A DNA stretch of 64,000 bases, from contig CAMYKW010000004.1 in NCBI GenBank assembly GCA_947259175.1, positions 79,403 to 143,402 on the forward strand, read 5' to 3'. This stretch comes from an uncultured Gammaproteobacteria bacterium (GTDB lineage Bacteria; Pseudomonadota; Gammaproteobacteria; Arenicellales; JAANXG01). Shown in pieces: positions 8,500-48,158 of the stretch (within the stretch, counting starts at the first letter, position 1; every line of letters starts with the position of its first letter). The position numbers were made by a program, and so were the translations under genes. Below the pieces are notes generated by a model. It worked only from the letters and a program-made list of their open reading frames with translations, was not told where the DNA came from and searched no databases.

Positions 8500-8526
8500 T
8501 TATCGTCTCGCGCGTCGGAAAATTTA
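8500..8526 (-). promoter_or_regulatory. sigma-28 (FliA)-type promoter for the cheA operon
   Basis: The minus strand reads TAAATTTT-N11-GACGATAA, against consensus TAAAGTTT-N11-GCCGATAA. It lies about 120 nt upstream of the cheA ATG. Confidence 0.6.
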
Positions 8527-8611
8527 GGCGCGCGGCGAATATTTACCGAATATTCCCCGCAAATCCGCTATCCTGTAACTTGAGTCGAACCAAAAAAACA
8601 GGCGCCAGTCC

Positions 8612-9457
8612 ATGAACAACGACACCGAGCAGCTGGTTCTCAAGCTGCGTGATATTCCTCCACTCTCCGAGATGCAGACGCTGCTGCAGGCGGTGAGCAA
8701 CCAAGACGTCGATTTTCAGGAGCTCGCGAAGATCATCGAATCGAGTCCGCCCACGGCGGCGCGCATCATCAAGGTCGCTAATTCCGCCTTTTACGGGACC
8801 ACCGCGCAGGTCGATTCTGTCAAGGACGCAATAATCCGCGTGCTCGGTTTGGATGTGGTGCGCAGCTTGGTCATGGGGTTGGCGGCAAGTTCGGCCTTCA
8901 ACGCGGAGCGTTGTCCTGCGTTCGACACCCACCGCTACTGGTGCAGCGCCCTGTTGACGGCCAACCTCGCTCGCAGACTCGCGGGTATCGTCACATTAGA
9001 CGATGCCCCGGTACCTGATTTCGCCTATCTGGGTGGCCTGCTGCACAACATCGGGCTGATCGCCCTGGCCCATATCGCACCGACGCAGATGTCGGAGGTG
9101 TTTGCCGCTGCCGAAAGAAACCAACGCCCGCTACACGAAGTGGAATCGCAGGTCCTGGGGCTGGATCACCGCCAGGCCGGTGCATTGATCGTGGCCCAGT
9201 GGGGCATGCCTGAGCAGCTTCACACCGTGATCGTGCATTACCACGAGGATGGCTACCGTGGACCGGAGTGGGTGGCGTGTCGCCTGGTGCGGCTTTGTTC
9301 CGACTGGGCCCAACAGGCCCTCCGGGGTGCGGCGCCAGGCATCGACGGCGATTCGGTCGCCGAGTTGCAAATGGATACGCGCGATCTGAATGCGGTAATC
9401 GGCACCGCCCACCAGGAAGTGCAGTCCATCATCGATCTCGCCCAGCTGTTCCACTGA
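8612..9457 (+). CDS. HDOD domain protein
   Basis: IPPLSEMQTLLQAV..FQELAKIIESSPPTAARIIKVANSAFYG..VKDAIIRVLG..GGLLHNIGLIAL is the typical HDOD layout. Confidence 0.8.
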   Translation: MNNDTEQLVLKLRDIPPLSEMQTLLQAVSNQDVDFQELAKIIESSPPTAARIIKVANSAFYGTTAQVDSVKDAIIRVLGLDVVRSLVMGLAASSAFNAERCPAFDTHRYWCSALLTANLARRLAGIVTLDDAPVPDFAYLGGLLHNIGLIALAHIAPTQMSEVFAAAERNQRPLHEVESQVLGLDHRQAGALIVAQWGMPEQLHTVIVHYHEDGYRGPEWVACRLVRLCSDWAQQALRGAAPGIDGDSVAELQMDTRDLNAVIGTAHQEVQSIIDLAQLFH

Positions 9458-9733
9458 CGGCGTTCCGGGGCCGGGGTCAACGCCGCCCTGGGGGTACGCG
9501 GCCTGGCTTGTCGCCGGTGGTGGCTCGAACGGCCGTGCCCCGGCCTAACCCGCATATTGCACCAGTCGCCCAGCTACTATTCCCGGCAAGCGATCAAAAC
9601 GATGTTCGGCTGAGTATTCATGGAAATGACGTTGTGAGCTCCGCTAAGCTACGGCTATGACTTTCGTTCCAGTCCGGCGTTCAGCCGCCCCTGTCCTGCG
9701 CCAGCTTCCCAGATACTGATGCAATATGCGGGC

Positions 9734-9760
9734 TAAAGATTTCGCCCCGGCTGCCGATAA
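9734..9760 (+). promoter_or_regulatory. sigma-28 (FliA)-type promoter
   Basis: TAAAGATT-N11-GCCGATAA is a near-perfect consensus match, 126 nt upstream of the ATG at 9886. Confidence 0.65.
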
Positions 9761-9885: not shown

Positions 9886-10209
9886 ATGACTACGAAATTA
9901 AAGCATTGCTGGGAAATCAAGGGATGCGGCCGTGAGGTGAATGGCGCGAAGGTGCATGAATTGGGAGAGTGTGTCGCCGCGACCGAGGGACTCGGTCACA
10001 GCTGCTGGGCCATTGCCGGCACCCTGTGCGGTGGCGTGGTGCAGGGCAGTGTGGCGCAGAAGGAACAGAACTGTGTGGCGTGTGAAGTCTACCAGCGCTA
10101 TCACCGAGCCCTGGGATCCGACGGCGAGGCAGTCGTCGAACAATACCCTGACGAAGAGCATCGATACAATCAGATGCTTCTCGCCCGGATGCAGCAAAAC
10201 TCCAAGTAA
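9886..10209 (+). CDS. Small cysteine-rich protein, two-CW-like domain
   Basis: 107 aa from the ATG at 9886, preceded by AAAGGTGG. Seven Cys are arranged as HCWEIKGCG-x14-C-x10-CWAIAGTLCGG-x15-CVAC, with no TM segment. The ORF-track start at 9775 has no SD and is rejected. Confidence 0.6.
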   Translation: MTTKLKHCWEIKGCGREVNGAKVHELGECVAATEGLGHSCWAIAGTLCGGVVQGSVAQKEQNCVACEVYQRYHRALGSDGEAVVEQYPDEEHRYNQMLLARMQQNSK

Positions 10210-10267: not shown

Positions 10268-10631
10268 ATGACGGATTCCTCCCATTCGGCGGCGGGTTCC
10301 GTGCTCATAGTGGACGATTGCCGCACGACGCGCATGATCCTGCGGCGGGCTCTGGAGGCACTGTCGTTTGTCGTCGACGAAGCCGTGCATGGCCAGGATG
10401 CATTGCAGCGTTGCGACGCCAACGGCGGTTACGATCTGGCGCTGATCGATTGGAATATGCCGGTGATGGACGGGCTCAATCTGGTCTACGCGCTGAACGA
10501 AAAGCCGCAATATCAACAGATGAGCATCCTGATGATCTCCACGCGCAACGAGCGCCACCGACTATCTGACCAAACCGTTCAGTGTGGACGAATTAAAGGA
10601 AAAGCTGGTTGATCTCGGTTTTCCGGTCTGA
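10268..10631 (+). pseudogene. CheY-like receiver gene with internal deletion and frameshift
   Basis: Frame 2 reads VLIVDD..LIDWNMPVMDG..ILMISTRNERH and then nonsense to a stop at 10612. Frame 3 from 10560 reads DYLTKPFSVDELKEKLVDLGFPV*. The T-to-K spacing is about 11 residues instead of about 22. Confidence 0.6.
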
Positions 10632-10678
10632 GGGAATCCATCCTTCCGGTTGTGGCGGCGGCTTTAAGCCGCGACAAG

Positions 10679-11890
10679 TTATCCGGCGCTCAGCAGGTGA
10701 CGCATTTTTTCCACCTGCTGCTTGGTGTTCTCCGCCAGCCGGCGGGCCGAGTCTACACTCAGATCGCCCAAGCCCAATGCCGCCAACGACGGCAGCTCAT
10801 GTAACGGTGGGATGTCCGGGTTGGAGTCATTGCGAATCCTGATCAACAGGTTTGCAAACAGCACCAAACCGCAATAGTCGGGGGCGGTGGTGGGACTGCG
10901 ATAGTAATCCGTTGCGGAGAGGGGCACCAAAGATACCTCGTCGGGAAATCCCCAGCAGCGCAGCATCATGCTGCCGACATGGGCATGCAGTTTGACGATA
11001 ATACGCTCGAGCTCGCCGGGGCGTTGGACGATTTCAGGGTATTTTTCCGCATGCGCAATGACCGCGATGGCGCCGACGTTTTGCAGCAGTCCCGCGAGCA
11101 GCGCGGTTTCGGGTTCGAAATCCTTGATTTTGCCGGCAATGGCAAAGCACGTGGCGGCAATATCGACACTGTGTCGCCACAGCTTCTGCATGTGTCGTTT
11201 GAGCGTGGAGGATTTTGTATTGAACAGCTCACGCATGGCGAAACCGGTGACCAGCTCCCGCGTCGTGGACCAACCCAGCCGCACCAGTGCGTCGGAGGTG
11301 GTGTGCACCGGGTCGTTGCCGCGGTAACGCACGGCGATTTCCGGCAAACTGGGTAATTGCAGCTTGTCGTCCTGACAGCCGACGTACAATTCACGGAAGA
11401 GCAGGTTTTCACGCAATTCAGCACCCGCGTCGACCTCTTCCACCACATAGGCCGACGACGATTGCTCATTCAGGCACCTTTGTAACACGTCACGATCGAC
11501 GCACAGAACTTGCACCGGAGAAGTGGTGGTGACGTTGTAACGGTGAGGCTGCAGCAGGGATACGGCGTATCCAGCTTCGTTGCTGCCGCCTTCCAGGCTG
11601 CGCCGTGCGCCGTTACCGGACTCGATTGTCAGGCGGCCCGTTATAAGATACACCGCGTATTGGCTGCTTGTGCCGATTTGCGCAAGCCGCTCTTCGGCGG
11701 GGAATTCGCGAATCGCGGAATGCCGGGCGATTTCCGTCAACGTCTCCTCTGACAGTGATGCGAACTGCTTGAATCGGCGCAGCGAGTCCATGCCTGGGTG
11801 CGCATCCTCGGCAACGCGTGGGTCTGTCGGGACGTCGTAGGTTTGTTGCGCGGGTGTATGTGCTCTGTGAAACATCTCTGGTCCCCTCAC
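10679..11890 (-). CDS. Cyclic-nucleotide-binding-domain / HDOD-domain protein
   Basis: The N-terminal half is cNMP-binding-like (FPAEERLAQIGTSSQYAVYLITGRLTIE). The C-terminal half is HDOD-like (LPSLPEIAVR, DALVRLG, AGLLQNVGAIAVIAH, KLHAHVG). The start may instead be the ATG at 11875. Confidence 0.65.
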   Translation of the reverse strand: MRGPEMFHRAHTPAQQTYDVPTDPRVAEDAHPGMDSLRRFKQFASLSEETLTEIARHSAIREFPAEERLAQIGTSSQYAVYLITGRLTIESGNGARRSLEGGSNEAGYAVSLLQPHRYNVTTTSPVQVLCVDRDVLQRCLNEQSSSAYVVEEVDAGAELRENLLFRELYVGCQDDKLQLPSLPEIAVRYRGNDPVHTTSDALVRLGWSTTRELVTGFAMRELFNTKSSTLKRHMQKLWRHSVDIAATCFAIAGKIKDFEPETALLAGLLQNVGAIAVIAHAEKYPEIVQRPGELERIIVKLHAHVGSMMLRCWGFPDEVSLVPLSATDYYRSPTTAPDYCGLVLFANLLIRIRNDSNPDIPPLHELPSLAALGLGDLSVDSARRLAENTKQQVEKMRHLLSAG

Positions 11891-12013
11891 TCATCAGGTC
11901 GGTCACTGCCGGATTCGGGTCCTGGTTCGCAGATTATCCGTACCCCGTAACCGGGACCGGAAACATCGCGTGGAGCGCTATTGGCGGTACTTGGCCTCTA
12001 TACATATGTGTGA

Positions 12014-12040
12014 GTATCGGTTCCGACGACGGAATCTTGA
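12014..12040 (-). promoter_or_regulatory. Candidate sigma-28-type promoter (weak match)
   Basis: The minus strand reads TCAAGATT-N11-ACCGATAC, about 120 nt upstream of the cNMP/HDOD gene. Confidence 0.35.
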
Positions 12041-12130
12041 GCGTTGTCGTGGAAATTCGCCGGGTCTACCCGGGCGGCAACGCGCGGACCGCCGGTTCGC
12101 ATCGGCGCGCCCTTGGCATGCGTTGTCGTC

Positions 12131-12157
12131 TAAAGTCTCTCCGATTGCTGCCGATAG
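12131..12157 (+). promoter_or_regulatory. sigma-28 (FliA)-type promoter
   Basis: TAAAGTCT-N11-GCCGATAG, 77 nt upstream of the ATG at 12234. Confidence 0.6.
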
Positions 12158-12175
12158 TCTCAGAAACCAACGCTT

Positions 12176-12196
12176 GGCCAGAGCGGCTCTCTGGCC
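12176..12196 (+). promoter_or_regulatory. Leader hairpin in the 5' UTR of the DOMON-like gene
   Basis: GGCCAGAG-cggct-CTCTGGCC is a perfect 8-bp stem lying between the predicted TSS and the AAGGAGG SD. Confidence 0.3.
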
Positions 12197-12233
12197 CCCG
12201 GCATGAATCAACAGTGAAGGAGGGCGATAAGCC

Positions 12234-13077
12234 ATGGGTAATTCAGGAGCATTTCATTCACTTGTCACGATAATCGGGATGCTGTCGGGAGTGACGCTGT
12301 CGGCCGCGGCCACCGCCACCACCATCACCATGCACAGTCTGGACGCCGCGCCTGTGCTCGATGGACAAGGCCAGGACTGGTCGGGTGTGCCGGTGACCTC
12401 GATCGCGCTCAAACCGAGCCGGTCCGGGATCACTACCGCGGTCGACAGCGTTGACATCAAGGGGGGCGTGCACGGGGACTATATATATTTTCTGGTCGAA
12501 TGGCAGGACAGCACCGAGGATAGTGTGCACAAGCCGTGGGTGTGGGACAAGGACAAAGGTAAGTACGTCAAGGGACCGCAGCGGGAGGATCGTTTTGCGC
12601 TGCAGTTTGCCATGCAAGGCGATTATTCCACCAACTGGTTGTCGGGCAAGGAGTTCATGGCCGACATGTGGCACTGGAAGTCGACGCGTTCCAATCCGCT
12701 GGGCCTGGTGCACGACAAGAGCACGATCATCAGCGCCAAGAAGATGGCCAAGACGCGGGCATTTACCGCGGACGGCGGCGGCAAGGTGTATATCGCGCGT
12801 CCCAGCGATGCCGGGGACAAGCTGTACACGACCAAGCGCTATCACAAATACGACCAGGAGGTGAGAAAACCCACAGGGTTCCACCACCGACGTCGAAGTC
12901 AAGGGCAAGTGGCAGGACGGCAAGTGGTGCCTGGAGATTCGCCGCAAGCGGGATACCGGCCACGCGGACGACGTGGTGTTCCCCACCAGCGGCACGCTGG
13001 TCGGCGGCATCGCGGTGTACGACCATTCCGGTGACGATGATCACACCGTCTCCGACAACCTGGTATTTCAATTCTGA
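12234..13077 (+). pseudogene. Periplasmic DOMON / ethylbenzene-dehydrogenase-like (EB_dh) haem-binding-domain protein, apparent +1 frameshift
   Basis: Signal peptide IIGMLSGVTLSAAATA. Body motifs are DGQGQDW, GDYIYFLVEWQDSTED, DRFALQF and DMWHWKSTRSNPLGLVHD. After YDQEVRK frame 3 turns into Arg-rich nonsense. Frame 1 from 12865 reads ENPQGSTTDVEVKGKWQDGKWCLEIRRKRDTGHADDVVF..GGIAVYDHSGDDDH..LVFQF*. Confidence 0.55.
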
Positions 13078-13092
13078 ACAACGCATCCAGCC

Positions 13093-15585
13093 ATGATCGA
13101 TCGAGCAAAGGCAGAAACCAGAGATGCGGCGATTGTCGCAGCCGAGACAGACGCCGCCACCGGCGGCGCCGACGCGGCGGGTCATGGCGTGACTCGAGAG
13201 ATCGCCGTCACCTGGTCCATCGGCGCCGTGCTTGCGGTAATGCTGTTGATCACCGTCATCGGTGGACTGTATGTCGCCACCAAGCTAAACGTCGCCTCTG
13301 AACGGGCAGGGGAGAATCACGAACTGATCGAGCAGAGCGACGCCAACATACGCAAACTGGATCAGGCGTTGTTGCCGGTGGTGCGGCGTCTGTATCACCT
13401 CGAGCAGGTGGTGCAGCGCCATGGCTTTGAATTCGAAATGCTGGTGCTCGACACCGACCGCGAGACCGGCGCCCTGGCCGCGGCCGCGAGCGGGGTCCAG
13501 GAGGCATTCGCGGCGCTGGGGGACACCGGCGGCGGCATCCTATCCCAGGAGTTGCTGGCGCAGATCGAGGAGCTGGTCGCGGTGATGTCGGCGATGACCG
13601 ATGAGTTGCTGGAGACCGAGGATCGCAACGAGCGCTTCGATCTGCTTTTAGATGCGCAGGACATGCAGCTGCAGTCGCGGACGACGATCAAAACTGCCTC
13701 GGCGCAGTTGGAAGAGGAGAGCAAACGTCTAACCGCCCTGGCGGCGGAGAACACCTCCAAAGCGCACCACCATCTGGAGGAACAGTACGGCACACTGCGG
13801 TCGGTCCAATATGGCGCCGGGTGGAGTTTGGGGGTGAATCTCATTGTGGTCATCGCGGCCATGTTGCTCCTGTACCGGCTGCTCGACCGGCGCCTGGGCC
13901 GGGTGGCCGATTACGCCAACCGGATTGCCGGCGGCGACTTCGACGCCCGCCTCGAGACAACCGCCACGGACAAGATCGCCCAGGTCGCGGCCGCCGTGGG
14001 TACGATGGGTAAGAGCCTCGCTGCATTGGTGCGCGACGGCGAACAGAAAAACGCCCTCGCCGAGGAAGCCAAGGCAAAGGCGGAGCGCGAGAACTGGATG
14101 AACGAGAGCCTGCGCCGGGTGTCCGAGGCGACACAGGGGGAAACCCGGATCGAGCGGCTGCTGGACCAGGCGCTGTCTATCCTGTGTGAGCGGCTGGCAC
14201 TGTCTGGCGCGTGGGTGAGTGAATTCAACCGCGGCGAGGCGCTATTGCTGGCGGCGTGCGGAGATATCGACGAAGCCACGCGAAGCGCCTTGGTTGTTGA
14301 AGGCGGCGCGATGAATAACGTCGCGCGCGACGGCGAGTCTCGATGGCTGGAGTTACCCCATGGGGATACCGCTCACACCTTATACGTCGCTGCGTTGAAC
14401 GAGTCTCGTAACGAACCCATGGTGCTGGCGCTGGTGTTCGCGGACTCGCCGGATGAGATCCAAAAACGCCTGGTAAAACACACCATGGTGAATCTCGGCG
14501 TCAGCGTACGCGCCGCCAACCAGGCGCAGACTTTGGAGCGCAACAACGCCGAGCTACGCCATAAGGTCGACGAAATGCTCGCAGTGGTCAATGCCGCGGC
14601 CAAGGGGGATCTCACCCGGGAGGTGAAAGTCTCGGGTGCGGATGCGATCGGCCAGATGAGCCAGGGATTGAATGGATTCTTCAAGGAACTACGCAGCCAC
14701 ATTGGCACCATCGCGGTGAACGCCCAAAGCTTGACGGCGGCGTCGGAGCAACTGTCCGGGGTGGGCACGCAGATCGGCACCAACGCGGAGCAGACTTCCG
14801 ATCGGGCCACGGCGGTGCTGGCGGTCGCCGAAGACGTGACCAAAGGCGTGGAAACCGTGGCGGCCGCCGCGGAACAGATGAACGCCAGCATCCGCGAGGT
14901 TGCCGACAACGCGAGTTCTGCGTCCGCGGTGGCGACCAACGGCGTCGAGATCGCCACCACCACCAACGCCACGGTGGCCAAACTGGGTGAAAGCAGCAAT
15001 GAGATCGGTAACGTCGTCAAGGTGATCACCACGATCGCCGAGCAGACCAATCTGCTGGCGTTGAACGCCACCATCGAAGCGGCGCGCGCCGGTGAGGCGG
15101 GTAAGGGGTTTGCGGTGGTGGCCAACGAAGTCAAGGATCTGGCCAAGGAAACCAGCCAGGCCACCGAGGATATCAGCAACAAGATCGAGGCCATCCAGGT
15201 GGACACCCGCAGCGCGGTGCAGGCGATCGGGGAGATCGGCGACATTATCGGCAAGATCCATGAGATCCAACAGCGTATCTCCTCCGGCGTTGAAAATCAG
15301 GCCCGCACCACGGATGAGATCACCCGGGTTGTGGCCGGTGCGGCGCAGGGGAGCACGGAGATTTCCCAGAGTGTCGCCAGCGTTAACCAGGCGGCGCAGG
15401 ATACCTTGAGCGGCGCCACCCAGGCGCAGCACGCGGCGCAGGAATTGTCGCGCACCGCCGCCGAGCTGCAGCGCATGGTGGGGCGGTTCACCTACGAACA
15501 GCCGCGGGAGGCCACGCCGTCCGGATTCGGTGATCGGGTGCGGGCCTTGTCTGAAGCCCCTGTGCCACAGCAAAAGGTCGGCTGA
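13093..15585 (+). CDS. Methyl-accepting chemotaxis protein (periplasmic helical sensor, HAMP, GAF-like insert, second HAMP, MCP signalling domain)
   Basis: Two TM segments flank about 190 aa. HAMP motif RIAGGDFDARLE. MCP core [35 protein letters not shown]. The gene starts 16 nt after the DOMON-like stop. Confidence 0.9.
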   Translation: MIDRAKAETRDAAIVAAETDAATGGADAAGHGVTREIAVTWSIGAVLAVMLLITVIGGLYVATKLNVASERAGENHELIEQSDANIRKLDQALLPVVRRLYHLEQVVQRHGFEFEMLVLDTDRETGALAAAASGVQEAFAALGDTGGGILSQELLAQIEELVAVMSAMTDELLETEDRNERFDLLLDAQDMQLQSRTTIKTASAQLEEESKRLTALAAENTSKAHHHLEEQYGTLRSVQYGAGWSLGVNLIVVIAAMLLLYRLLDRRLGRVADYANRIAGGDFDARLETTATDKIAQVAAAVGTMGKSLAALVRDGEQKNALAEEAKAKAERENWMNESLRRVSEATQGETRIERLLDQALSILCERLALSGAWVSEFNRGEALLLAACGDIDEATRSALVVEGGAMNNVARDGESRWLELPHGDTAHTLYVAALNESRNEPMVLALVFADSPDEIQKRLVKHTMVNLGVSVRAANQAQTLERNNAELRHKVDEMLAVVNAAAKGDLTREVKVSGADAIGQMSQGLNGFFKELRSHIGTIAVNAQSLTAASEQLSGVGTQIGTNAEQTSDRATAVLAVAEDVTKGVETVAAAAEQMNASIREVADNASSASAVATNGVEIATTTNATVAKLGESSNEIGNVVKVITTIAEQTNLLALNATIEAARAGEAGKGFAVVANEVKDLAKETSQATEDISNKIEAIQVDTRSAVQAIGEIGDIIGKIHEIQQRISSGVENQARTTDEITRVVAGAAQGSTEISQSVASVNQAAQDTLSGATQAQHAAQELSRTAAELQRMVGRFTYEQPREATPSGFGDRVRALSEAPVPQQKVG

Positions 15586-15783: not shown

Positions 15784-18700
15784 TCAGGATGACGCTACGG
15801 CGTCTGCGCGCACCGCGGGCGGTTCCTCGCGCAACGCAAACCGCTCGATCACCGCGTCCGATAAAAGCGCCGCGTACCAGCAGCCGAGCCGGTCTTCCAG
15901 CATGTGGTGTGTGTGCACCCAGGCGCGCAGCCGTTCGCCATCCTTGGCCAGTGCGTCGCGGTCATGGATGCGGTCGCGGATGGCGGCGAGCCACGCTTCC
16001 GTGTCGTTGGCCACGCGGGTGATCGGCTGCGCCGCGTAAGGTGGGATATCCGTGGCGATCACCGGCCAGCCCATGGCCCCGTATTCGAGCACACGCAGGT
16101 CGCTCTTGCACTCGTTGAAGGCGTTGATCTCCAGGGGTGCAACGGCAAGGTCCAAGTCCAGTTGTGCGAGTTGTGCCGGATAGTGGCGGTAAACCACCGG
16201 CTGATAATACTCAGCAACATATGGCCGCAGCGCACGCGGGCACATACCCATCATCACCCAGTCCACTTCTCCGGCCAACGCCTCCATCACCGGCGCCAGG
16301 ATGGTGAGATCGCCATCGTGTTGTTGCGCGCCCACCCAGCCGACGCGGGGTCTGGCGGCTCGTCGGCGGCGTATTTCCAGGTGTCCCCAACGCTGGCGCT
16401 CGAGGAGGTTGGGGACCACGCGCACGTCATCGATGAACCCGCGGTACGCTGCGGCCAGTGGCTCCGTGGGAACCACCAGCCGGTGGCAGTGGGCCAGGGC
16501 GTCGCGAAGCCGCTGTTCCAGGTCCGCCGGCATCAGGCCCCGCCGGTCGTTGTCATCGGGCATGGCGAGCAGGTGGTCGTCGAGTCCGAACACCAGCAAC
16601 GCCTCGCCCGACTTCCGGTAGCGGGGCAGCCAGTGCAGGAAGGGATCGGTGAAGCCGTGATGGATTAGCACGGTGTCGGGCGCGGCCCGTTTCAATTCGC
16701 ACAATGTCGGCACCCGCGTGGGTACGGCGCCCTCGTGGTCGGGCAAGAACGCGATTTCGGCGTGTGCTGCACGATCCAGGGCCTGTAACGGTTGGCGCAC
16801 GCGGTATTCGCCGCTGCCCTGCCGGTTCAGGGGAAACGCCCACACCCGGGGCCGGGGGTGCTCCGGCGGCGTCCACGGCACCGCGAGTTCGTCTTCCACA
16901 CGCATGTCGCCGCGGGCGAGGGAAAGGTTCCGATTGTAGGCCGGGTCGTTCGCCAACAGGTCAGGCCAGCGTGCTATCAGCGTCGTGTTATCCGCCGTGG
17001 TCTTGGAGTTCGGATCGGGAGGGGCAGGCGATTGCGGCTCGTGGCTTTCGTGCTTCAGCAAGGTCGCGAACGGTGTCCACACCACCTCGTATCCCGCCTG
17101 GCGGGCGCGCAGACACAAATCCACATCGTGGCCGCACTGCGTGAATCCGGTTTCGTCGAAACCGCCCAGCTGCGCGAAAAGTTCCCGGGAAAGCAGCATA
17201 CAGGCGCCACTGACCGCCGAGAAGTTTTGTGCGACCTGTAGACGGTTGAGGTAACCGGGTGACTGCATCGCGTGTCCGGTAAACGCTCGCCCGGCGCCGT
17301 CGTCTATGCCCAATATCAAACCCGCATGCTGTACCCGTCCGTGCAGGTCAATGAGGCGTGCGCCCACCACCCCGACTTCCGGGCGCTGTACGTTGGCCAC
17401 CATTCGCGTCAGCCATTCGTCATGGATAGCCTGTGCATCAGGTTCGAGCACCAGCAACAGTTCGCCCCGCGATTCGGCGGCGGCGACATGGGTCAACGAT
17501 GCCGATCCCACGGCGCCGGGTGTGCGCAGCACGCGCACTTTGTCGTCATACGTGCGCGCCAGCTCGTCCAGCAGATCCGAATCGCCGCCGCCGCAATCGC
17601 TCAGGACGACCTCAAAGTCGGGGTAGCGGGTTTTCTGCAGCAAGCCTTCGATGCATAGGGGCAGCCATTTATAACGTCTCTCCACTGGAATCAGAATAGA
17701 CACCGAAGGCGGGTCGTGCGCCTGGTAATCGACAAAAAACGTTCCCGCGATCTCATGATGGGTCACTTGGGCGGTGAGACCGTTGCGTTCGAGGTGCGTC
17801 TCGACCGCGATACGGTCGTTTTCGGCGTCCGCGGCACCGATGGGCTCGCGGTCTTTGTCGCGCGGATAGTGGACGAGCACTTCCGGTATGTGGCCGACAG
17901 CGGATTCTCCGGCCGTATCCAGGATGCGCAACACCGCGTCGAAAACACCGGCGCCCGCGCCAAATCCTCCGCAACGGGTGAGCACATCACGCTCCAGCGC
18001 CAGCACGTCACCCATGTATGGCGTCGAACGCAGCAGGTCCAGGTTGAAGTCGGGTTTGAATCGCGGTTGATCGCGAGTCCCGTCTCGCGCAATATGGTCG
18101 TCGTCACAGTAGATTATCCGCCATTGCGGATATCGGTTCATATAGTCGCCCCAGCGCAGCAGGGCGTGGGGCGCGAACTGCACGCCCGATTTGGCGCGGA
18201 TGATCCAGTCGGCCTGGGATTCGCTGACGATCCGATTCAAGGTGTCGACTAGATCCCCGCGGATCTCCACCCACTCCAGATTGGGCAGTCGATGAAAACC
18301 CGCGTCCGGCGCCGGACAGTCCGCTATCACCGACAGGCCCCACCCCGGATACAGCTGTCGACACAGACTGTCGAGGGTGTCGGCCAGCGCGTCGTGCTGA
18401 TTCCCCTGGTGGATGGCAATCAACTGAAAGCTGGGCCGTAGCCGCCATGCGAGCATCATGCGCTCCGCCATGTATTGCGCCTTGTTTTCGGTAAGCGCGT
18501 GCGGCTGTTGCCACCGCGCGTAGCGGTCTGCATCGCTGTGCGCTGATCCTTCGTCGCGCCGCGCGCCTTCGAGTTGTGTCAGCGCCTGCGTCCGTCTCAG
18601 TTCCACCTGCGCATTGCCCGGCAGCGGGTAGCGTGCGTAGATTTTACGGTGCAAGGCTGGAAAGTCGTGCCGCTCGCGCTGACTCATGTTGTCGTCCCTG

Positions 18701-22191: not shown

Positions 22192-22485
22192 TTACTCACG
22201 GGCGTCAAATGGGTGTTCGATCGATTGCAGTCGATAAATGAATGCCAACACCTCCGCGACCGCCTGGTAGAGCTGCACCGGGATATCGGCATCGAGATCG
22301 ACCTGCGCGAGCAGACCGACCAATTCGGGATCTTCGTACAGCGGCACGCCTGCTTGTCTTGCAATGCCGATAATCTGTTCGGCGATCAGCCCGCGTCCTT
22401 TCGCCACTACCCGCGGCGCGTGATCGTCGCGTTCATACTTGAGCGCAACGGCATTGCGGTAATCACCGTGTCGTTTAGACTTCAC
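22192..22485 (-). CDS. Free-standing FlhB C-terminal-domain-like protein (EscU/YscU/FlhB family fragment)
   Basis: 97 aa reading AVALKYERDDHAPRVVAKGRGLIAEQIIGIARQAGVPLYEDPELVGLL..VAEVLAFIY. GTG start overlaps the upstream stop (GTGA). Confidence 0.75.
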   Translation of the reverse strand: MKSKRHGDYRNAVALKYERDDHAPRVVAKGRGLIAEQIIGIARQAGVPLYEDPELVGLLAQVDLDADIPVQLYQAVAEVLAFIYRLQSIEHPFDARE

Positions 22486-23648
22486 GCCTGGACGTCCAGC
22501 AGTGGTTGTTGAATACCCGGAAAATCCGCCTCATGGATGCCCGACGCACAGACCACGGATTCCGGAACCAGGCCGATGTTGCGCAGTCGGTCGCATAGAC
22601 CGTCGAGGTGGGATTGGGCGAGTGCTACCGTCGCATCGCGTTCCGCGCGTAACACAACGGAAATCAAGTCGCCGGAGAGGGTTAAGCGCGCCTGCATTGC
22701 GCCGATGGACGGCAGCTCGATTGAGACGACGGTGGAAAATACGCCCCCCCCTTGTCCACCCCGCGACGACGGTCGTTTCTCGATTCTGAATCTCACCATT
22801 TGCACCTCGTCTCCGTCTCGTACCGGCAGCTCCAGATTCCACGCGGATCTCGAACCCTCGACTTCGATCAGCGATGTGAGTTGGTGCAGCTGAATTCGCG
22901 CGAGCGCGCTTTCCACCTGTTGGGACAAAGCGTTTAATGTCTTGACGACCGCGGCGTCGCCAGGCGACGCTGTATTTGTATTGCCATGCGCCTGCTGATT
23001 TGTCGTGGCGGGTGCACTGCGGCTGCGAACCGGGCGCGAACCGCCCGGATTCACCATATCAGCCAGTGCGGTACGCAGCCGCACCAGTCCCGCCTTGAAA
23101 TCCCGTTCCAACGCGCCACGATGGGAGTCCGACAGCAGCCTGAGCAGGCGCTGTTCCAGAAAATGACCGCTGTTCAATATCGCCTGTTTTACAGATTCCC
23201 CGGACAAGGATCCGCTGATCTGGGTCAGACTATCGACGACGTGGCGAGCCAATTGCGTGATCGAGCCGGGTAGTCGCGTACCACCGGACTGGCGCGCGAT
23301 ACGATGTAAATTTGTCAACAACTCGATAATCGATCCCTGTTTCGGCAGTTGTTGCCGAATCGCCTGCACCAGGTTGGACGGATGCAGTTGCTGGTCGAGA
23401 ATCCTGAGCCGAATCTCCGGTCCGATCTTCTCCACCACCAGCGCCAGGGATTGACCGGCGATCAGTGGCAGCGTAGTGCGAGCAGTGAACGTAGCCTGGT
23501 TCAGTTGCAGCGTCACCGTTCCCTGCTGGGCGACGGTGAGGACGGTGCCGGAAAGCTGCTGGCCGACCGCGAGCCCACTGAGCTGCGCGTGATTCGACGC
23601 CACCGTGAGCAACTGCTGGGTGACCAGTGAGGTTGATATGGATTCCAT
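22482..23648 (-). CDS. FliK-like protein (flagellar hook-length control C-terminal-like domain)
   Basis: 388 aa. The C-terminal block WNLELPVRDGDEVQMVRFRIE..VVSIELPSIGAMQARLTLSGDLISVVLRAERDATVALAQSHLDGLCDRLRNIGL follows the Flg_hook-type pattern. It is translationally coupled to the FlhB-like gene. Confidence 0.6.
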   Translation of the reverse strand: MESISTSLVTQQLLTVASNHAQLSGLAVGQQLSGTVLTVAQQGTVTLQLNQATFTARTTLPLIAGQSLALVVEKIGPEIRLRILDQQLHPSNLVQAIRQQLPKQGSIIELLTNLHRIARQSGGTRLPGSITQLARHVVDSLTQISGSLSGESVKQAILNSGHFLEQRLLRLLSDSHRGALERDFKAGLVRLRTALADMVNPGGSRPVRSRSAPATTNQQAHGNTNTASPGDAAVVKTLNALSQQVESALARIQLHQLTSLIEVEGSRSAWNLELPVRDGDEVQMVRFRIEKRPSSRGGQGGGVFSTVVSIELPSIGAMQARLTLSGDLISVVLRAERDATVALAQSHLDGLCDRLRNIGLVPESVVCASGIHEADFPGIQQPLLDVQA

Positions 23649-23781
23649 TGCGGTTGGGTTACTGACTTGCCGTTGGCATCCGGCCGGCTCGAGGCGACGG
23701 ATTTACTGCACAATGACTATGTCGCCTGGTGAATCGGGATGCCGTATGAGTGTGGGCGAAATGCACTGGAATTCATCGATG

Positions 23782-33117: not shown

Positions 33118-33235
33118 CGCCACGGCCCGGGCGATGCGGCGACTTTGCCGCGGCGGCGGCAGAAGATTGCCGCGCACCGCAGCGGACGGCGCCGTCACCG
33201 CCGCGTATTGGCGGCCATCGCCACACGCGTCTCGT

Positions 33236-33251
33236 TGGCACGAAGCTTGCT
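33236..33251 (+). promoter_or_regulatory. sigma-54 promoter for flgBCDE...
   Basis: TGGCAC-GAAGC-TTGCT, a perfect consensus, 38 nt upstream of the flgB ATG. Confidence 0.75.
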
Positions 33252-33288
33252 GTTGTACTGGGGGACAGCAATTAAATCGGAGACCACA

Positions 33289-33696
33289 ATGGGATTGAGC
33301 GTGGACCACGCACTGGGCATTCACGACGACGCCTTGCTCATCAGAGCCAGGCGTGCGGCGATCTTGGCGTCCAATCTCGCCAATGCCGACACGCCGCATT
33401 TCAAGTCCCGCGACATCGATTTCAAAGACACCCTGCGGCAAATGGCTCCGGACAGCCCATCTTCGAGTGCGCGTCTGATTCGTACCCATGCCGGTCATCT
33501 GGGTGGCGCGCAAAACGCGTTATTTGTGACCGATGCCCTGTATCGCATACCGAGCCAGCCGTCACTGGATGGAAATACCGTAGATGCGGACACCGAACGG
33601 GTGGAGTTCACCAAGAATTCCATGGCCTACCTGGTCAGCCTGCGGTTGTTGAGCGGCCGTATACGCTCGGTGCTCAGCGCATTGAAAGGAGAGTAA
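33289..33696 (+). CDS. flgB: Flagellar basal-body rod protein FlgB
   Basis: ILASNLANADTPHFKSRDIDF with the ATG at 33289 downstream of the sigma-54 promoter. Confidence 0.92.
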   Translation: MGLSVDHALGIHDDALLIRARRAAILASNLANADTPHFKSRDIDFKDTLRQMAPDSPSSSARLIRTHAGHLGGAQNALFVTDALYRIPSQPSLDGNTVDADTERVEFTKNSMAYLVSLRLLSGRIRSVLSALKGE

Positions 33697-39644: not shown

Positions 39645-40670
39645 ATGATCGAGGGCGAAGCCACCACACGTTTTTCTCTGGATTTCTCGCGATTCAACGG
39701 ACTGCGCAGCGCGGCGCGCGCCGGATCGGGCGTGGCGCTGGAGGAGGCCGCAGCGCAATTCGAGTCCCTGTTCGTGCAATTCGCGCTTCAGGCCATGCGC
39801 GAGGCGACCCTGGGCGACGGCCTGTTGGACAGTGAACAGAGCAAATTCTATCAAGGCCTGCTTGATCAACAATTCGCCTTGTCGCTGACCTCGGGCCACA
39901 GATCCCTGGGTTTGAAGCGTATGCTCACCGATCAACTCGGTAAGCATCAGGAACCGGCTGCGGCCGCCAAGGACGCGCGTGAAGGCTCTTCGCCAGGTGC
40001 GGATATCCCGCGGTTAAAGAAAACATCCCCCGCGGCCGCTAATTTCTACAAGGCGGTGCACGACGCGTTGGATCAAGAAGTGCCCGCTGCATCGGATGCC
40101 GGCGCCGGCGCTACGACCTCGGACGGTCAAAGGATTGCGCCATCGCCGGACACAGGGGCCTCGGCGGCGGACATCGGACGTTCGCGCGAGGCGTTTGTTC
40201 GCGGTCTTTGGCCGTTGGCCGAGGAGGCGGGCCGCCATCTCGGAGTATCGCCGCGGGTATTGGTTGCGCAGGCGGCGCTCGAGACCGGCTGGGGTAGATA
40301 CATTCCCCAACGCGCGGATGGCACCCATGGCCACAATCTGTTCGGCATCAAGGCGGGCGGCGGCTGGCGGGGCGAGCGTGTTGCGGCACATACCTGGGAG
40401 GTCGAGGACGGGCAACGGGTGCCCGCCCGCGCCGAGTTCCGCGGCTACGATTCGTTTGCCGAGAGTTTCAACGACTACGTGAACTTTCTGCAGACCAATC
40501 CACGCTATGCCGGTGCGTTGCGCGCCGCCGCCGATCCGGAGGCGTTTGTGGACGCATTGCAGCGGGCGGGATTCGCTACCGATCCGCAATATGCACAAAA
40601 GATCAGAGCCATCATGGACAGCAGGATAGGCGCGTACGAACCCGACGCGGCCGGCGGGAAGTTTGGGTGA
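39645..40670 (+). CDS. flgJ: Flagellar rod assembly protein / peptidoglycan hydrolase FlgJ
   Basis: N-terminal FlgJ rod-binding part (AAAQFESLFVQFALQAMRE) and C-terminal glucosaminidase part (AQAALETGWG, HNLFGIKAGGGWRGE). Confidence 0.9.
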   Translation: MIEGEATTRFSLDFSRFNGLRSAARAGSGVALEEAAAQFESLFVQFALQAMREATLGDGLLDSEQSKFYQGLLDQQFALSLTSGHRSLGLKRMLTDQLGKHQEPAAAAKDAREGSSPGADIPRLKKTSPAAANFYKAVHDALDQEVPAASDAGAGATTSDGQRIAPSPDTGASAADIGRSREAFVRGLWPLAEEAGRHLGVSPRVLVAQAALETGWGRYIPQRADGTHGHNLFGIKAGGGWRGERVAAHTWEVEDGQRVPARAEFRGYDSFAESFNDYVNFLQTNPRYAGALRAAADPEAFVDALQRAGFATDPQYAQKIRAIMDSRIGAYEPDAAGGKFG

Positions 40671-44055: not shown

Positions 44056-47000
44056 ATGAACAACAACGCCGGTGAGCAGCGCGACGTCGCGCAGTTGAAT
44101 CGAGAAGGCGAAAACCTGTTCCAGGACGGCGATATCGCCGGCGCAATGGCCAAATTCGAGCTGGCGCTGACGGTGGATGATGCACATCCGGAGACTTTGA
44201 ATAACCTCGGCGTCGGCCATCTGCACCTCGGCGATACCGAGCGCGCGCTGCAGTGTCTGGCGCGGGGGTTGGAATCGCACCCGCAAAATCGCGAGCTGCT
44301 GACCAATGCTTGCACCGTACTCCGCGAGCTGGGGTATGACCGGGATGCGGAGATACTCGAGCTTGGTGTCGAGGCCCTCAGCCGTGGAGATACGGACACA
44401 TGTTGGGCGCCCGGCGAACAGGCACGGGACTTCGTGGCCGGTTTGGCGCCCCTGGGCGCACGGCCGTTGGTGTCGGTGGTCGTCATTGCCGACAGCGGTT
44501 TGGCGGCCATGCAAAGCGCCTTGGGTACACTGGCCGCGCAGAGCTATGACAACTGGGAGGCGGTGATTATTTCCAGTCACCGTGAGGCAGCCGCGCTGCG
44601 GGACCGTCGTCACGCCCCGGACGCGCGAATTCGTTACCATGAGACGCGTGCCGACAACCCCGCCGGCGCCCGCAACGACGCCTTGCGCGCGGCGCAGGGG
44701 GAGGTGATCTGTTATCTCAACGATACCGAATTGTTCCTGCCCCACCATCTGTCCACGGTCGTCGCTGCGTTGCGGGAGCGTGCAGTCCCGTTTGTTTACA
44801 CCGATGCGCAGGTGGTGCACGGTGTGGCCGCAGACGGAGCGTGCGAAGCGCTGTTCACCGATCAGGTGTCGAGCGACGCGGAGTTTTGTCGGGACCGGAT
44901 TCTGGTCGACAACCCGATATCCATCGCGACCTGGGCGCACCGAGCCGGATTTGTCGAAAGCCTGGGCGGTTTCGATGAGTCGCTGCGGGCGTGCGAGGAT
45001 TGGGATCTACTGCTGCGATTCAGCGGCCACCGCCCACCGGTGCACGTCCCCCGCGTGAGCGTGCAGATCCGGCGTCAAGGCGGCGCGGTGGACCTGGCGC
45101 GGACCGCCCTCCCAGGGCATCTCGCGGACGGCGTCGTCGATATCCTGTACCGACGCTATCCGGTGACCGCGCCGGCGTTACAGCGGGCGAGGAATGCCCG
45201 GTTACGGCAGTTGGCGCACGAGCGGCGGCGCCAAAGCGCGGACTCGCCGTACGTGCGCATGGACGAATTGTACCCGTTATGGGTCGAGAAACATCAGCTG
45301 TCCGAGGCGGACGGAGAGATTCTCGCTGAACGGATGATGACCGACTGGAGTCACCAGCCGACCATTGAGATTTTGATGGTTGCCGAACCGGGCGATGAGT
45401 CCCGCATGTGCGACACCGCGGTTAGCCTGCGTCGTCAGTTATATGGCCAGTGGCGTTTGACGGTGATTTGCCCCGAACCGATGACCCCATGCCCTGGGCT
45501 GCCTCAAGCCCGGTTCCGCGCGATCGTCCATCGCGGCGATCCAACGGCGGCGTTGAACAGCGTGGCCAAGGGCACCGCGCGGGACTGGATCGCGCTCATC
45601 GACCCCGGCGACCTCCTGCCGCCCCACGCGCTGTTTGCCTGCGCCGACTACATCAGACTCCATCCAAACTGGCGGTTGCTGTACACCGACGAGGACTGTA
45701 TCGACCCGGCGGGCAATCGTTTTGATCCTAAATTCAGACCGGATATCAATATGGACTTGTTGCGGTCCACCGCCTACACCGGACCTTTCTGCTTGGTGCG
45801 TGCCGATGCGTGGCGGGCGTTGGCGGGCGTCACCACGGTCGATGACAGTAAGACTTACGACTTGACGCTAAAGGTCGTGGATCGGTTTGGGGAGGACGGC
45901 GTCGGGCACATCGCCGATGTGCTGTATCACCGCCGGCGCGGTAAACGCACAAACGACGACGGCGAGATCCGCCGCGGCGAGCTGCGCGCGCTCAAAAATC
46001 ATTTCGAGCGCAATGGGATTGGCGCCGACGTCGAACCCGGCTATCTGCAGGGCACCCATTTCATCACCTACCGGCACGATCAATCCCAGCCGCTGGTGTC
46101 CATCATCGTCCCGACGCGCGACAAATTGGAGTACCTGCGTCCCTGTGTCACCAGCGTCTTGGATAAGACCCGTTATGAGTCGTACGAGCTGATCATCGTC
46201 GACAACGGCAGCGACGATCCGCAAACCCTCGAATTTCTTGATGAACTGGAGGGCGCGCATCGACACGTTCGCGTGCTTCGCTATCCACATCCGTTCAATT
46301 ACGCCGAGATCACCAATTGGGCGGCGGTTCAGGCCCGGGGTGATTACCTGTTGCTGCTGAACAACGATACCCATGTAGTGCACGACAACTGGCTCGGGCG
46401 GATGGTGAACCAGGGAATGCGTAGCGAGGTGGGTGTGGTCGGCGCGCGCCTGGTATTCGCGGATATGCGCTTACAGCATGCCGGGGTGGTGACCGGCATA
46501 CATGATATTGCCGACCATGTGTTTCTCAAACTGCCCATGGATGAACCCGGTCACTTGGGCCGGGCGCAGTGCGTACAGAATTACTCGGCGGTAACCGCGG
46601 CTTGCATGCTGGTGCGCAAATCGGTATTCCTTGAGGTCGGGGGGATGGACCAAGCCGAACTTGCGGTGCTGTACAACGATGTGGACCTGTGCCTGAAGAT
46701 CGGCGCGCGGGGGTTGAAAGTGGTGTGGACGCCCTACGCGACTCTGATACACCACGGTTCGCGCAGTATCCGCGAATACAACGACAAATCGGATCTTCTG
46801 CAGCGTAAATCGGAGGCCCACTGCATGGTGCGCAGGTGGTTGCCGCGGCTTGCCCGGGATCCTGCGTACAACCGCAACCTGACGCTGAAGCACTGCGATG
46901 CGCGTGTGGAAACCCAGGTCGACGTGAGCTGGGACCCGAGTTTCCACGACCGGCCGCGGGTGATGGCGTTTCCGTTTCATCGCTGGGGTTCGGGTGAATA

Positions 47001-47976
47001 CCGGGTACGCGCGCCGGTGCGCGCGCTGCACGATGCCGGTCGCATTCAATATGCGTTGATGCCCTTGAACAACACGCGACGGGCGCCCCATCTGTGCGAG
47101 CTGGAGCGGGTGGCGCCGGATGTCCTGCTGATGCACAACACCCTGCATGACGAGTACCTGAAACTTCTGCCGCTGTACAAGCAATACAATTCCGCTTACC
47201 GCGTGTTGGGTCAGGATGATCTGATAAGTGCATTGCCCCCGAAAAATCCTTATCGGAAAACGGTGTATCCGGACATAGAGCAACGCATCCAACGCGCCTT
47301 GGAATGCTGCGATCGTCTGCTGGTTAGCACGGAACCGTTGGCGCAGGCGTTCGCAGGGATGATTGAAGACATTGTGGTGTTGCCGAATTACCTCGAGCGT
47401 GCGCGATGGGGCCGGTTGCGCTCCGCGAGGCGTCGCGGCGCGCGGCCGCGCATCGGTTGGGCGGGTGCGCAGCAGCATCAAGGTGATCTGGAGTTGCTGA
47501 TCGAAGTCGTGCGGGCCACCCGCGACGAAGCGGATTGGGTGTTCATGGGCATGTGCCCGGAACAGATCCGGCCGTGGTGTGCGGAGTATCATGACGGTGT
47601 GACTATCGACCGCTATCCACAGGTGCTTGCGTCTCTGGATCTCGATCTCGCCGTGGCGCCGCTCGAGGTCAACGCGTTCAACGAGGCGAAAAGCAACCTG
47701 CGGCTGCTGGAGTACGGCATCCTGGGATGGCCGGTGGTGTGCACCGACATCTTTCCCTATCGCGACGCACCGGTGTGCCGCGTCGCCAACACCCCCGGCG
47801 CGTGGATCGACGCGCTGCGCGAGCGCATCCACGATCTCGAGGCCGCGGCGCGGGAGGGCGATGCGCTCAGGCGCTGGGTTCGCGAGCGCTGGATGCTGGA
47901 CGATCACCTCGATGAATGGATGGCGGCGCTGCTGCCGGGGCAGGGCATGGCCTGTGCTCGGGATGTGCGCGGCTAA
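44056..47976 (+). CDS. TPR-containing multidomain glycosyltransferase, likely flagellin glycosyltransferase; paralog of 15784-21105
   Basis: 1306 aa. TPR-like N-terminus (AMAKFELALTVDDAHPETLNNLGVGH). GT2-like modules are AAQSYDNWEAVII and VSIIVPTRDK..LIIVDNGSDD..LLLNNDT. The C-terminal module reads IGWAGAQQHQGD..LDLAVAPLE..NEAKSNLRLLEYGILGWPVVCTD. It is located between flgL and fliC. Confidence 0.8.
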   Translation: MNNNAGEQRDVAQLNREGENLFQDGDIAGAMAKFELALTVDDAHPETLNNLGVGHLHLGDTERALQCLARGLESHPQNRELLTNACTVLRELGYDRDAEILELGVEALSRGDTDTCWAPGEQARDFVAGLAPLGARPLVSVVVIADSGLAAMQSALGTLAAQSYDNWEAVIISSHREAAALRDRRHAPDARIRYHETRADNPAGARNDALRAAQGEVICYLNDTELFLPHHLSTVVAALRERAVPFVYTDAQVVHGVAADGACEALFTDQVSSDAEFCRDRILVDNPISIATWAHRAGFVESLGGFDESLRACEDWDLLLRFSGHRPPVHVPRVSVQIRRQGGAVDLARTALPGHLADGVVDILYRRYPVTAPALQRARNARLRQLAHERRRQSADSPYVRMDELYPLWVEKHQLSEADGEILAERMMTDWSHQPTIEILMVAEPGDESRMCDTAVSLRRQLYGQWRLTVICPEPMTPCPGLPQARFRAIVHRGDPTAALNSVAKGTARDWIALIDPGDLLPPHALFACADYIRLHPNWRLLYTDEDCIDPAGNRFDPKFRPDINMDLLRSTAYTGPFCLVRADAWRALAGVTTVDDSKTYDLTLKVVDRFGEDGVGHIADVLYHRRRGKRTNDDGEIRRGELRALKNHFERNGIGADVEPGYLQGTHFITYRHDQSQPLVSIIVPTRDKLEYLRPCVTSVLDKTRYESYELIIVDNGSDDPQTLEFLDELEGAHRHVRVLRYPHPFNYAEITNWAAVQARGDYLLLLNNDTHVVHDNWLGRMVNQGMRSEVGVVGARLVFADMRLQHAGVVTGIHDIADHVFLKLPMDEPGHLGRAQCVQNYSAVTAACMLVRKSVFLEVGGMDQAELAVLYNDVDLCLKIGARGLKVVWTPYATLIHHGSRSIREYNDKSDLLQRKSEAHCMVRRWLPRLARDPAYNRNLTLKHCDARVETQVDVSWDPSFHDRPRVMAFPFHRWGSGEYRVRAPVRALHDAGRIQYALMPLNNTRRAPHLCELERVAPDVLLMHNTLHDEYLKLLPLYKQYNSAYRVLGQDDLISALPPKNPYRKTVYPDIEQRIQRALECCDRLLVSTEPLAQAFAGMIEDIVVLPNYLERARWGRLRSARRRGARPRIGWAGAQQHQGDLELLIEVVRATRDEADWVFMGMCPEQIRPWCAEYHDGVTIDRYPQVLASLDLDLAVAPLEVNAFNEAKSNLRLLEYGILGWPVVCTDIFPYRDAPVCRVANTPGAWIDALRERIHDLEAAAREGDALRRWVRERWMLDDHLDEWMAALLPGQGMACARDVRG

Positions 47977-48131
47977 AAGCCGCTCCCACAAAAGACCCTT
48001 AAAAAGTTTTTCGCAGACTAAATCGAGGAAGAATTTCCGGGACCATCGCTTACCGGGAAGTATCCACGGCGTGTCCCGGATATTCTCCCTTGATTCAGCC
48101 CCGCCTTGGATCGATTCCGCCAGCAAACCGC

Positions 48132-48158
48132 TAAAGTTTCCACCGCTCGTGCCGATGA
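48132..48158 (+). promoter_or_regulatory. sigma-28 (FliA) promoter for fliC
   Basis: TAAAGTTT-N11-GCCGATGA, about 115 nt upstream of the fliC ATG. Confidence 0.75.

Follow-up and report, generated by a model that had tools for sequence, protein, structure and literature searches.

A 64-kb stretch of an uncultured marine gammaproteobacterial genome (contig CAMYKW010000004.1; hereafter the window) encodes a single large flagellar and chemotaxis supercluster, in which nine intergenic sites match the bipartite promoter of sigma-28 (FliA), the flagellar sigma factor. Five of these sites precede classical late genes, and four precede operons for non-canonical sensory proteins: a Cys-rich 'two-CW' protein and a CheY-like receiver (REC); an HDOD protein with a cyclic-nucleotide (cNMP)-binding domain; a periplasmic EB_dh-family (DOMON-like) protein with a methyl-accepting chemotaxis protein (MCP); and a second HDOD protein with a PAS-GGDEF-EAL enzyme. 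We conclude that flagellin, flgMN, motAB-pilZ, the che operon, cheY and the four sensor operons probably form one class IV regulon, gated by FliA together with FlgM, its anti-sigma factor. What we observe directly is the motif, with its orientation, its statistics and its conservation across lineages.

Sigma-28-type promoters in the supercluster

We mapped the genes from open reading frame (ORF) lists, codon-position G+C content and Pfam and NCBIfam scans. A preliminary description of this DNA had reported eight sigma-28-type sites, and a direct check found all of the quoted strings, coordinates and strands to be exact; all eight sites are intergenic and share the orientation of the next gene. 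Among the classical targets, the operon cheA-cheW-MCP(hemerythrin)-cheB-cheR follows a site at 8500–8526 (minus strand), flgM-flgN a site at 28410–28436 (minus strand), motA-motB-pilZ a site with a 12-nt spacer at 30520–30547 (plus strand) and the flagellin gene fliC a site at 48132–48158 (plus strand). The sensor-operon sites lie at 9734–9760 on the plus strand, before the two-CW gene (9886–10209) and the CheY-like receiver gene (10268–10612), both on the plus strand; at 12014–12040 on the minus strand, before the cNMP-HDOD gene (10679–11875, minus strand), this site being the weakest by mismatch count; at 12131–12157 on the plus strand, before the EB_dh-family gene (12234–13034) and a HAMP-MCP gene (13093–15585), both on the plus strand and assigned with Pfam; and at 24245–24271 on the plus strand, before an HDOD gene (24304–25170) and a PAS-GGDEF-EAL gene (25174–27549), likewise plus-strand genes assigned with Pfam, with a 3-nt gap between them.

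The distance to the start codon had been put at 25–130 nt, which is essentially right: measured from the end of the −10 box it is 29 nt for flgM, 32 nt for HDOD, 76 nt for EB_dh, 115 nt for fliC (ATG 48274), 124 nt for cheA, 125 nt for two-CW (ATG 9886), 131 nt for motA (GTG 30679) and either 138 nt (ATG 11875) or 123 nt (GTG 11890) for cNMP-HDOD. Start codons at these distances, 29–138 nt past the sites, have ribosome-binding sites.

A ninth strong site, outside the coordinates covered by the preliminary description, was missing from its otherwise correct list. It occupies the gap between cheR and cheY (1363–1389, minus strand; TCAAGTTT-N11-ACCGATAA), has two mismatches to the consensus and scores 25.8 bits on the matrix described below. 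Its −10 box ends 42 nt before the cheY ATG at 1320, and it would give cheY (958–1320, minus strand) a late promoter of its own within the che gene string.

The sites exceed chance expectation

The Escherichia coli FliA consensus is TAAAGTTT-N11-GCCGATAA (PMC4183435). When both strands of the window (60.8% G+C) were scanned against it, with 300 dinucleotide-preserving shuffles as the null, six matches with at most two mismatches were observed against 0.01 expected, and 13 with at most four mismatches against 1.67 expected. With the 12-nt spacing, one match with at most three mismatches was observed (the motA site, with three) against 0.16 expected.

We then scored the sites with a weight matrix trained only on classical promoters, namely those of cheA, cheY, flgM, motA and fliC in the window together with their down-weighted orthologues, a restriction that avoids circularity. 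The four held-out sensor-operon sites score 27.3 bits (two-CW), 18.4 bits (cNMP-HDOD), 18.3 bits (EB_dh/MCP) and 18.3 bits (HDOD/GGDEF-EAL). Ten matches in the window reach at least 18 bits, nine of them intergenic and co-oriented with the downstream gene; shuffles lead us to expect 0.047 in the whole window and 0.022 in its 5.9 kb of intergenic DNA (58.9% G+C), and nothing else in the window scores above 14.5. Related loci provide a stricter test than shuffles: their 199 kb of real DNA contain three matches of at least 18 bits without an orthologous target downstream, a rate of about 1 per 65 kb or about 0.002 per 250-nt upstream region. This background agrees with the single intragenic match at or above 18 bits, at 40015–40042 of the window. 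For practical purposes, a chance origin of the sites is excluded. The sites at 12014 and 24245 are not secure by mismatch count alone, and their support comes from the matrix score and orthologous conservation.

Together, the nine sites show 1–4 mismatches, scores of 18.3–27.3 bits and a spacer of 11 (rarely 12) nt. The −10 box has a CGA core in seven of them, the flgM and HDOD sites carrying CGT, and in six of the nine an extra C stands ahead of TAAAG, as in the Pseudomonas aeruginosa −35 element TCTAAAG (PMC12784957).

Conservation of the promoters in relatives

For each sensor operon, the sigma-28 boxes are kept in three to six lineages, with the 11-nt spacer length fixed and the flanks diverged. 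The relatives are syntenic loci (numbered L001 onwards) in metagenome-assembled genomes (MAGs) of uncultured gammaproteobacteria, one of them labelled Arenicellales, and were reached via homologues of the EB_dh, two-CW and HDOD proteins. A profile search of genome contigs with the HDOD alignment led to four loci; a search of metagenome contigs with the cNMP-HDOD alignment returned zero matches. When orthologous upstream regions were aligned with MAFFT, little beyond the T-AAG and CCG-TA boxes and the start codon stayed invariant, and the spacers differed. Shuffle tests run region by region gave p values of 0.002 to 0.01 for 16 of the 17 orthologous regions. The cNMP-HDOD region of L003 alone departs from this; at 243 nt upstream, its site falls beyond the 250-nt window of the test.

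The classical promoters set the pattern. That of cheA reads TAAATTTT-N11-G(A/T)CGATAA in L001, L002 and L003, with identical boxes and unrelated spacers, while L006 has an orthologue of the flgM site at 14077–14103 and retains the 12-nt spacing at motA (TAAAGAAA-N12-CCCGATAA).

The same holds for the sensor operons. Sites before the two-CW orthologues read TCAAGAAT-N11-GCCGATAA (L001), TCAAGTTT-N11-GCCGAATA (L002) and TCAAGTTT-N11-GTCGATAA (L003), and those before the cNMP-HDOD orthologues TAAAGTTT-N11-ACCGATAC (L002) and TCAAGTTT-N11-ACCGATAT (L003). In L001 the cNMP-HDOD gene has been lost from the cluster or moved; a relocated copy in the same MAG (L014), beside a toxin–antitoxin pair, retains TAAAGTTT-N11-ACCGATAT 94 nt upstream of its start. 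The −10 box ACCGATA(C/T) is common to the window, L002, L003 and L014, and the window promoter is the weakest among these orthologues.

The EB_dh and MCP gene pair is conserved in L001–L004 and L010. Its sites in close relatives are TAAAGTCT-N11-GCCGATAG (L001), TAAAGTCC-N11-GCCGATAC (L002) and TAAAGTTA-N11-GCCGATAG (L003). In the distant locus L010, which lies outside any flagellar cluster and has its EB_dh-MCP pair among metabolic genes (48% identity in the EB_dh protein), the site is TAAAGATT-N11-GCCGCTAT; in L009, where the output is swapped and the downstream gene encodes a GGDEF-EAL enzyme, it is TCAAGAAA-N11-CCCGATAA. To judge from these loci and from the relocated cNMP-HDOD gene of L014, the putative sigma-28 promoter travels with its gene on relocation.

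The HDOD/GGDEF-EAL operon is preceded by TCAAGATC-N11-GCCGCTAA (L006), TCAAGACA-N11-GCCGTTAA (L007) and TAAAGAAA-N11-ACCGTTAT (L008), following the pattern T(A/C)AAGA-N13-(G/A)CCG(T/C)TA(A/T). As in the window, the site ends 30–32 nt before the start codon in L006 and L008, and the synteny of HDOD and PAS-GGDEF-EAL genes is found in L002 and L006.

The HDOD gene divergent from cheA (8612–9457, plus strand) served as a negative control. In four genomes its upstream region holds no site (best scores 1–5 bits, p > 0.27), and we rejected it as a fifth accessory target. The gene is itself conserved in position in the window and L001–L003. We also rejected the cultured relative Hahella aquimaris as support: its cNMP-HDOD orthologue (33% identity) has a −10-like GCCGATAC but no −35 box.

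The related loci contain sigma-28-type sites before genes that the window does not have. In L001, TCAAGTTC-N11-ACCGATAA (20195–20221, minus strand) precedes an operon for a periplasmic binding protein and an MCP, and in L003, TAAAGGCT-N11-GCCGATAT (6963–6989, minus strand) precedes an extra MCP gene. Separately, a 3-kb contig (L005, CAMYIN010000089.1) in the MAG of L002 is 99% identical to the window HDOD region, and that MAG's own syntenic HDOD copy is only about 50% identical to the window; this suggests that L005 is a mis-binned fragment of the window's species.

Regulatory setting and proposed mechanism

The window encodes flgM (28042–28380, minus strand; Pfam FlgM, E = 5.2e-18), fleQ, fleS and fleR. 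By gene content, the presence of flgM implies a FliA/FlgM checkpoint in this genome. Matches to the sigma-54 consensus (TGGCAC-N5-TTGCW) are perfect upstream of a FliK-like gene (30469–30484, minus strand) and flgB (33236–33251, plus strand), have one mismatch upstream of flgA (29457–29472, minus strand) and after fliJ (63354–63369, plus strand) and have two mismatches upstream of fleS (54997–55012, plus strand). Such putative promoters fit early tiers driven by FleQ and FleR, followed by FliA. The ORF listed at 33145–33696 probably starts downstream of the sigma-54 site at 33236.

Crude scans of the four sensor-operon intergenic regions found no match to the sigma-70 consensus and no sigma-54 match with 0–1 mismatches. 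The single two-mismatch sigma-54 match, beside the two-CW site (9720–9735, minus strand), is at chance rate, and with the scans otherwise empty we rejected a sigma-54 or sigma-70 origin for the four operons.

We propose that this supercluster serves a polar flagellum and chemotaxis, under a hierarchy of the Pseudomonas/Vibrio style. FleQ and FleS/FleR would drive the structural genes from sigma-54 promoters, FlgM would restrain FliA until the hook–basal body is complete, and export of FlgM would then free FliA. In a P. aeruginosa promoter, GCCGATAA spans −15 to −8 (PMC12784957), so FliA is predicted to initiate transcription roughly 8 nt past each GCCGATAA-like box, with starts expected near 1355, 8492, 9768, 12006, 12165, 24279, 28402, 30555 and 48166. 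The products turned on would be flagellin, FlgMN, the stator and the PilZ protein encoded with it, CheY and those of the che operon and, with them, the Cys-rich two-CW protein and its CheY-like receiver, the cNMP-binding HDOD protein, a chemoreceptor together with its periplasmic, haem-type EB_dh/DOMON-like partner, and the HDOD protein with the PAS-GGDEF-EAL enzyme. From the sequence evidence we infer FliA binding, the start sites, the timing of expression and any effect on motility.

Alternative explanations

The preliminary description had placed the four non-canonical operons in the late flagellar regulon, an assignment that the held-out scores and the boxes conserved in three to six lineages support. 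Several observations weigh against it. No fliA gene occurs in the 64-kb window. The relatives belong to a narrow clade of MAGs, so the conservation could partly be shared ancestry, although spacers and flanks have freely diverged. The sites at 12014 and 24245 have four mismatches each, a class in which about 1.5 chance matches are expected. Most FliA-bound sites in E. coli have no detectable transcript (PMC4183435), and the bifA promoter of Pseudomonas putida is only about twofold FliA-dependent (PMC5300878). Finally, two of the target genes look damaged in the window. The receiver gene at 10268–10612 is frameshifted, with the conserved 'ATDYLTKPF' C-terminal segment in the +1 frame (10268–10680); about 11 residues are missing relative to the L001 and L003 orthologues, and L002 lacks the gene. 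The frameshift points to a pseudogene or to an error in MAG assembly; of the 'Two-CW/REC' operon as first described, the promoter and the two-CW gene stand and the REC gene calls for this correction. The cNMP-HDOD protein has 398 aa against 433–436 aa in its orthologues, an internal deletion having removed about 38 aa of the HDOD N terminus. Accessory genes such as these are evolutionarily labile, and some may be decaying here unless the defects are assembly errors.

If only the classical promoters were real, the four non-canonical matches would be chance likenesses to an A/T-rich consensus in A/T-richer intergenic DNA. The four-mismatch sites at 12014 and 24245 leave room for this reading, as does the higher high-scoring background of real genomic DNA relative to shuffles (3 per 199 kb). 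It is nevertheless extremely improbable: intergenic G+C content is barely off that of the whole window, shuffled intergenic DNA yields only 0.022 matches of at least 18 bits, all four held-out sites still score 18.3–27.3 bits, and position, spacing and orientation are conserved across lineages in which the spacers have diverged. The main realistic rival is partial dependence, in which the sigma-28-type sites are real, contribute modestly and leave the sensor operons driven mainly by other promoters or activators, and hence not truly 'late flagellar'. Precedents exist: bifA promoter activity falls just twofold in a fliA mutant (PMC5300878), 30 of the 52 FliA sites of E. coli lie inside genes and are for the most part silent (PMC4183435), and the sigma-28 promoter of E. 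coli aer requires CRP (PMC2859248). The long 5′ leaders found here, of 123–138 nt, would also accommodate further elements. Against partial dependence stand the empty sigma-70 scan and the sigma-54 scan with its one chance-rate match, crude as both are, the finding that nothing but the sigma-28 boxes forms conserved blocks ahead of these genes, and the retention of the promoter after a gene moves to a new context. We consider it unlikely on balance. Still, the partial dependence of bifA and the silent sites of E. coli mean that a good motif is no guarantee of strong or exclusive control, and exclusive FliA dependence of the sensor operons cannot be claimed.

Some bacteria carry two FliA paralogues, and the motif could be read by a different sigma factor of similar specificity, for example a further sigma-28 paralogue or some other member of group 3, with the sensory operons forming a separate regulon. 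In keeping with this idea, the −35 boxes of the sensor operons lean towards TCAAGA- and TAAAGA-type sequences and one −10 box reads ACCGATA, whereas fliC and flgM have TAAAGTTT. The same variants, however, occur in classical promoters (cheY, TCAAGTTT and ACCGATAA; motA, TAAAGAAT), the −35 box alternates between TAAAG and TCAAG across lineages within one operon family, and a single flagellar system and a single flgM are visible. A separate regulon therefore seems improbable, and control of all nine promoters by the FliA/FlgM pair is the reading that we carry forward.

Proteins of the sensor operons

The two-CW protein has 107 aa, is rich in Cys and matches NCBIfam NF045718 at 70.9 bits (cutoff 35; E = 8.9e-20). 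It is 72–77% identical in the relatives, and a literature search on it found no paper. The notion that the family is generally linked to motility was rejected, as three distant homologues (L011–L013) lie in unrelated contexts and lack the motif; on this comparison, the putative link of two-CW to motility genes is specific to the window lineage. The cNMP-HDOD protein matches Pfam HDOD (7.9e-26) and, just under the cutoff, cNMP_binding (4.1e-6).

The sensor region of the window MCP (residues 53–299; the gene segment 13093–13992, plus strand) is homologous to the N terminus of the L009 GGDEF-EAL enzyme (29% identity, E = 1e-24), whose gene (10966–13170) directly follows that for EB_dh. This shared region suggests a portable module of EB_dh plus sensor with interchangeable outputs, which would have kept its sigma-28 promoter each time. 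Tentatively, the EB_dh/DOMON-like protein and the helical periplasmic, transmembrane and HAMP region of its partner may form a two-protein sensor, probably haem-based and responsive to redox state or gas, with a chemoreceptor as output in the window, L001–L003 and L010 and a GGDEF-EAL enzyme in L009. If expressed from a sigma-28 promoter in every case, it could possibly be a sensor dedicated to the swimming state and, with the two-CW protein, provide new sensory inputs to flagellar behaviour in marine gammaproteobacteria.

Candidate sites and neighbouring genes

The sole match of at least 18 bits within a gene (TAAAGAAA-N12-GCCGCTAA; 40015–40042, plus strand; 19.4 bits) falls in a flgJ-like gene, with flgK about 680 nt downstream. 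What it does is uncertain: it could be a class-3-type promoter for flgKL, or one of those silent sites within genes that are common in E. coli.

A second candidate, TTCAGTTT-N11-GCCGACTA (24183–24209, minus strand), stands upstream of an operon for an unknown 126-aa protein, a FliK-like protein and a protein resembling the FlhB C terminus (22192–24162, minus strand) and is divergent from the HDOD/GGDEF-EAL promoter. Its boxes are conserved in L006 (9861–9887, minus strand), L007 and L008, that is, in four lineages including the window, with the consensus T(T/A)(C/T)AGTT(T/A)-N11-(G/A)CCGACTA. The element scores just 7 bits on the classical matrix. Its −10 box resembles that of the E. coli aer promoter, GCCGACAT. 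It may be a divergent sigma-28 promoter, and we keep it as a candidate and not as a member of the regulon.

The remaining genes complete the supercluster. At lower coordinates than cheA lie cheR, cheB, the gene for the MCP with a hemerythrin domain and cheW, then cheA (6081–8375), all on the minus strand. A multi-GT2 glycosyltransferase of 1,773 aa with four GT2 domains (15784–21105, minus strand) and an HPP protein are encoded downstream of the EB_dh/MCP operon; the glycosyltransferase gene is conserved in L003, beside aminotransferase and methyltransferase genes. Next to the HDOD/GGDEF-EAL operon come the minus-strand genes flgN, flgM and flgA and a second one for a FliK-like protein, then motA, motB and the PilZ gene (32509–33117) on the plus strand. 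The PilZ gene is third in the motA-motB operon, an arrangement conserved in L006 (18067–18681), and may encode a YcgR/FlgZ-like cyclic di-GMP (c-di-GMP) brake produced together with the stator. The genes flgB to flgL are followed by that for a 1,306-aa TPR-GT2 protein (44056–47976, plus strand); the two large glycosyltransferases (1,773 aa and 1,306 aa) probably glycosylate flagellin. Beyond them lie fliC, flaG, fliD, fliS and fliT, a gene for a WD40 protein (51806–53308, minus strand), fleQ, fleS and fleR, and fliE to fliJ. The WD40 protein, a 500-aa beta-propeller encoded between fliT and fleQ, is unusual for a flagellar cluster.

Comparison with known systems

If the assignment holds, hypothetical signalling proteins of this lineage become a testable set of motility-linked genes, the two-CW small protein gains a first functional context, and the EB_dh-type protein gains one as a periplasmic partner of chemoreceptors and c-di-GMP enzymes. 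The promoter stays attached to relocated sensor genes, which could make it useful as a marker in comparative genomics when motility-associated sensors are sought in uncultured bacteria.

In E. coli and Salmonella, the class 3 set comprises fliC, flgMN, flgKL, motAB-cheAW and tar-tap-cheRBYZ. The window shares with this FliA regulon the bipartite consensus and the core targets, namely flagellin, flgMN, the stator and che genes. The E. coli regulon further includes the chemoreceptors tsr, trg and aer, the c-di-GMP phosphodiesterase yhjH (pdeH) and the PilZ brake ycgR (PMC4183435), and the window would likewise co-express chemoreceptors, a c-di-GMP phosphodiesterase and a PilZ brake with the filament. 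The tie between sensors and motility made in the preliminary description is thus sound on comparative evidence but, given this precedent in E. coli (PMC4183435), not conceptually new. In contrast to E. coli and Salmonella, which use FlhDC, the window has a hierarchy of the FleQ/sigma-54 type, its PilZ gene lies inside the motAB operon, and its accessory targets are two-CW, cNMP-HDOD, EB_dh with MCP, and HDOD with PAS-GGDEF-EAL.

Class IV of Pseudomonas is another likeness, with a polar flagellate, a four-tier FleQ/FleSR/FliA architecture, a −35 CTAAAG and a −10 GCCGATAA (PMC12784957). There, bifA, which encodes a GGDEF-EAL phosphodiesterase, lies behind a sigma-28-like promoter (PMC5300878), as a GGDEF-EAL enzyme does in the window, and the PilZ gene flgZ belongs to a FliA-dependent flagellar operon (PMC3913639). 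Unlike bifA, the window GGDEF-EAL gene comes second in an operon that starts with an HDOD gene and adjoins flgMN, and the likeness seen is one of domains.

HDOD proteins have been linked to swimming or flagellar synthesis in several bacteria: GsmR of Xanthomonas campestris, CJ0248 of Campylobacter jejuni, SadB of Pseudomonas, and PFL_0554 and PFL_5871 of Pseudomonas protegens (PMC11004494). Those links are mutant phenotypes, whereas the link here is a sigma-28-type promoter, present at two of the three HDOD genes of the window, which have other partner domains. Overall, the window extends a known pattern and leaves the understanding of the FliA regulon unchanged; what it adds is the identity of the targets, the two-CW protein and the EB_dh module.

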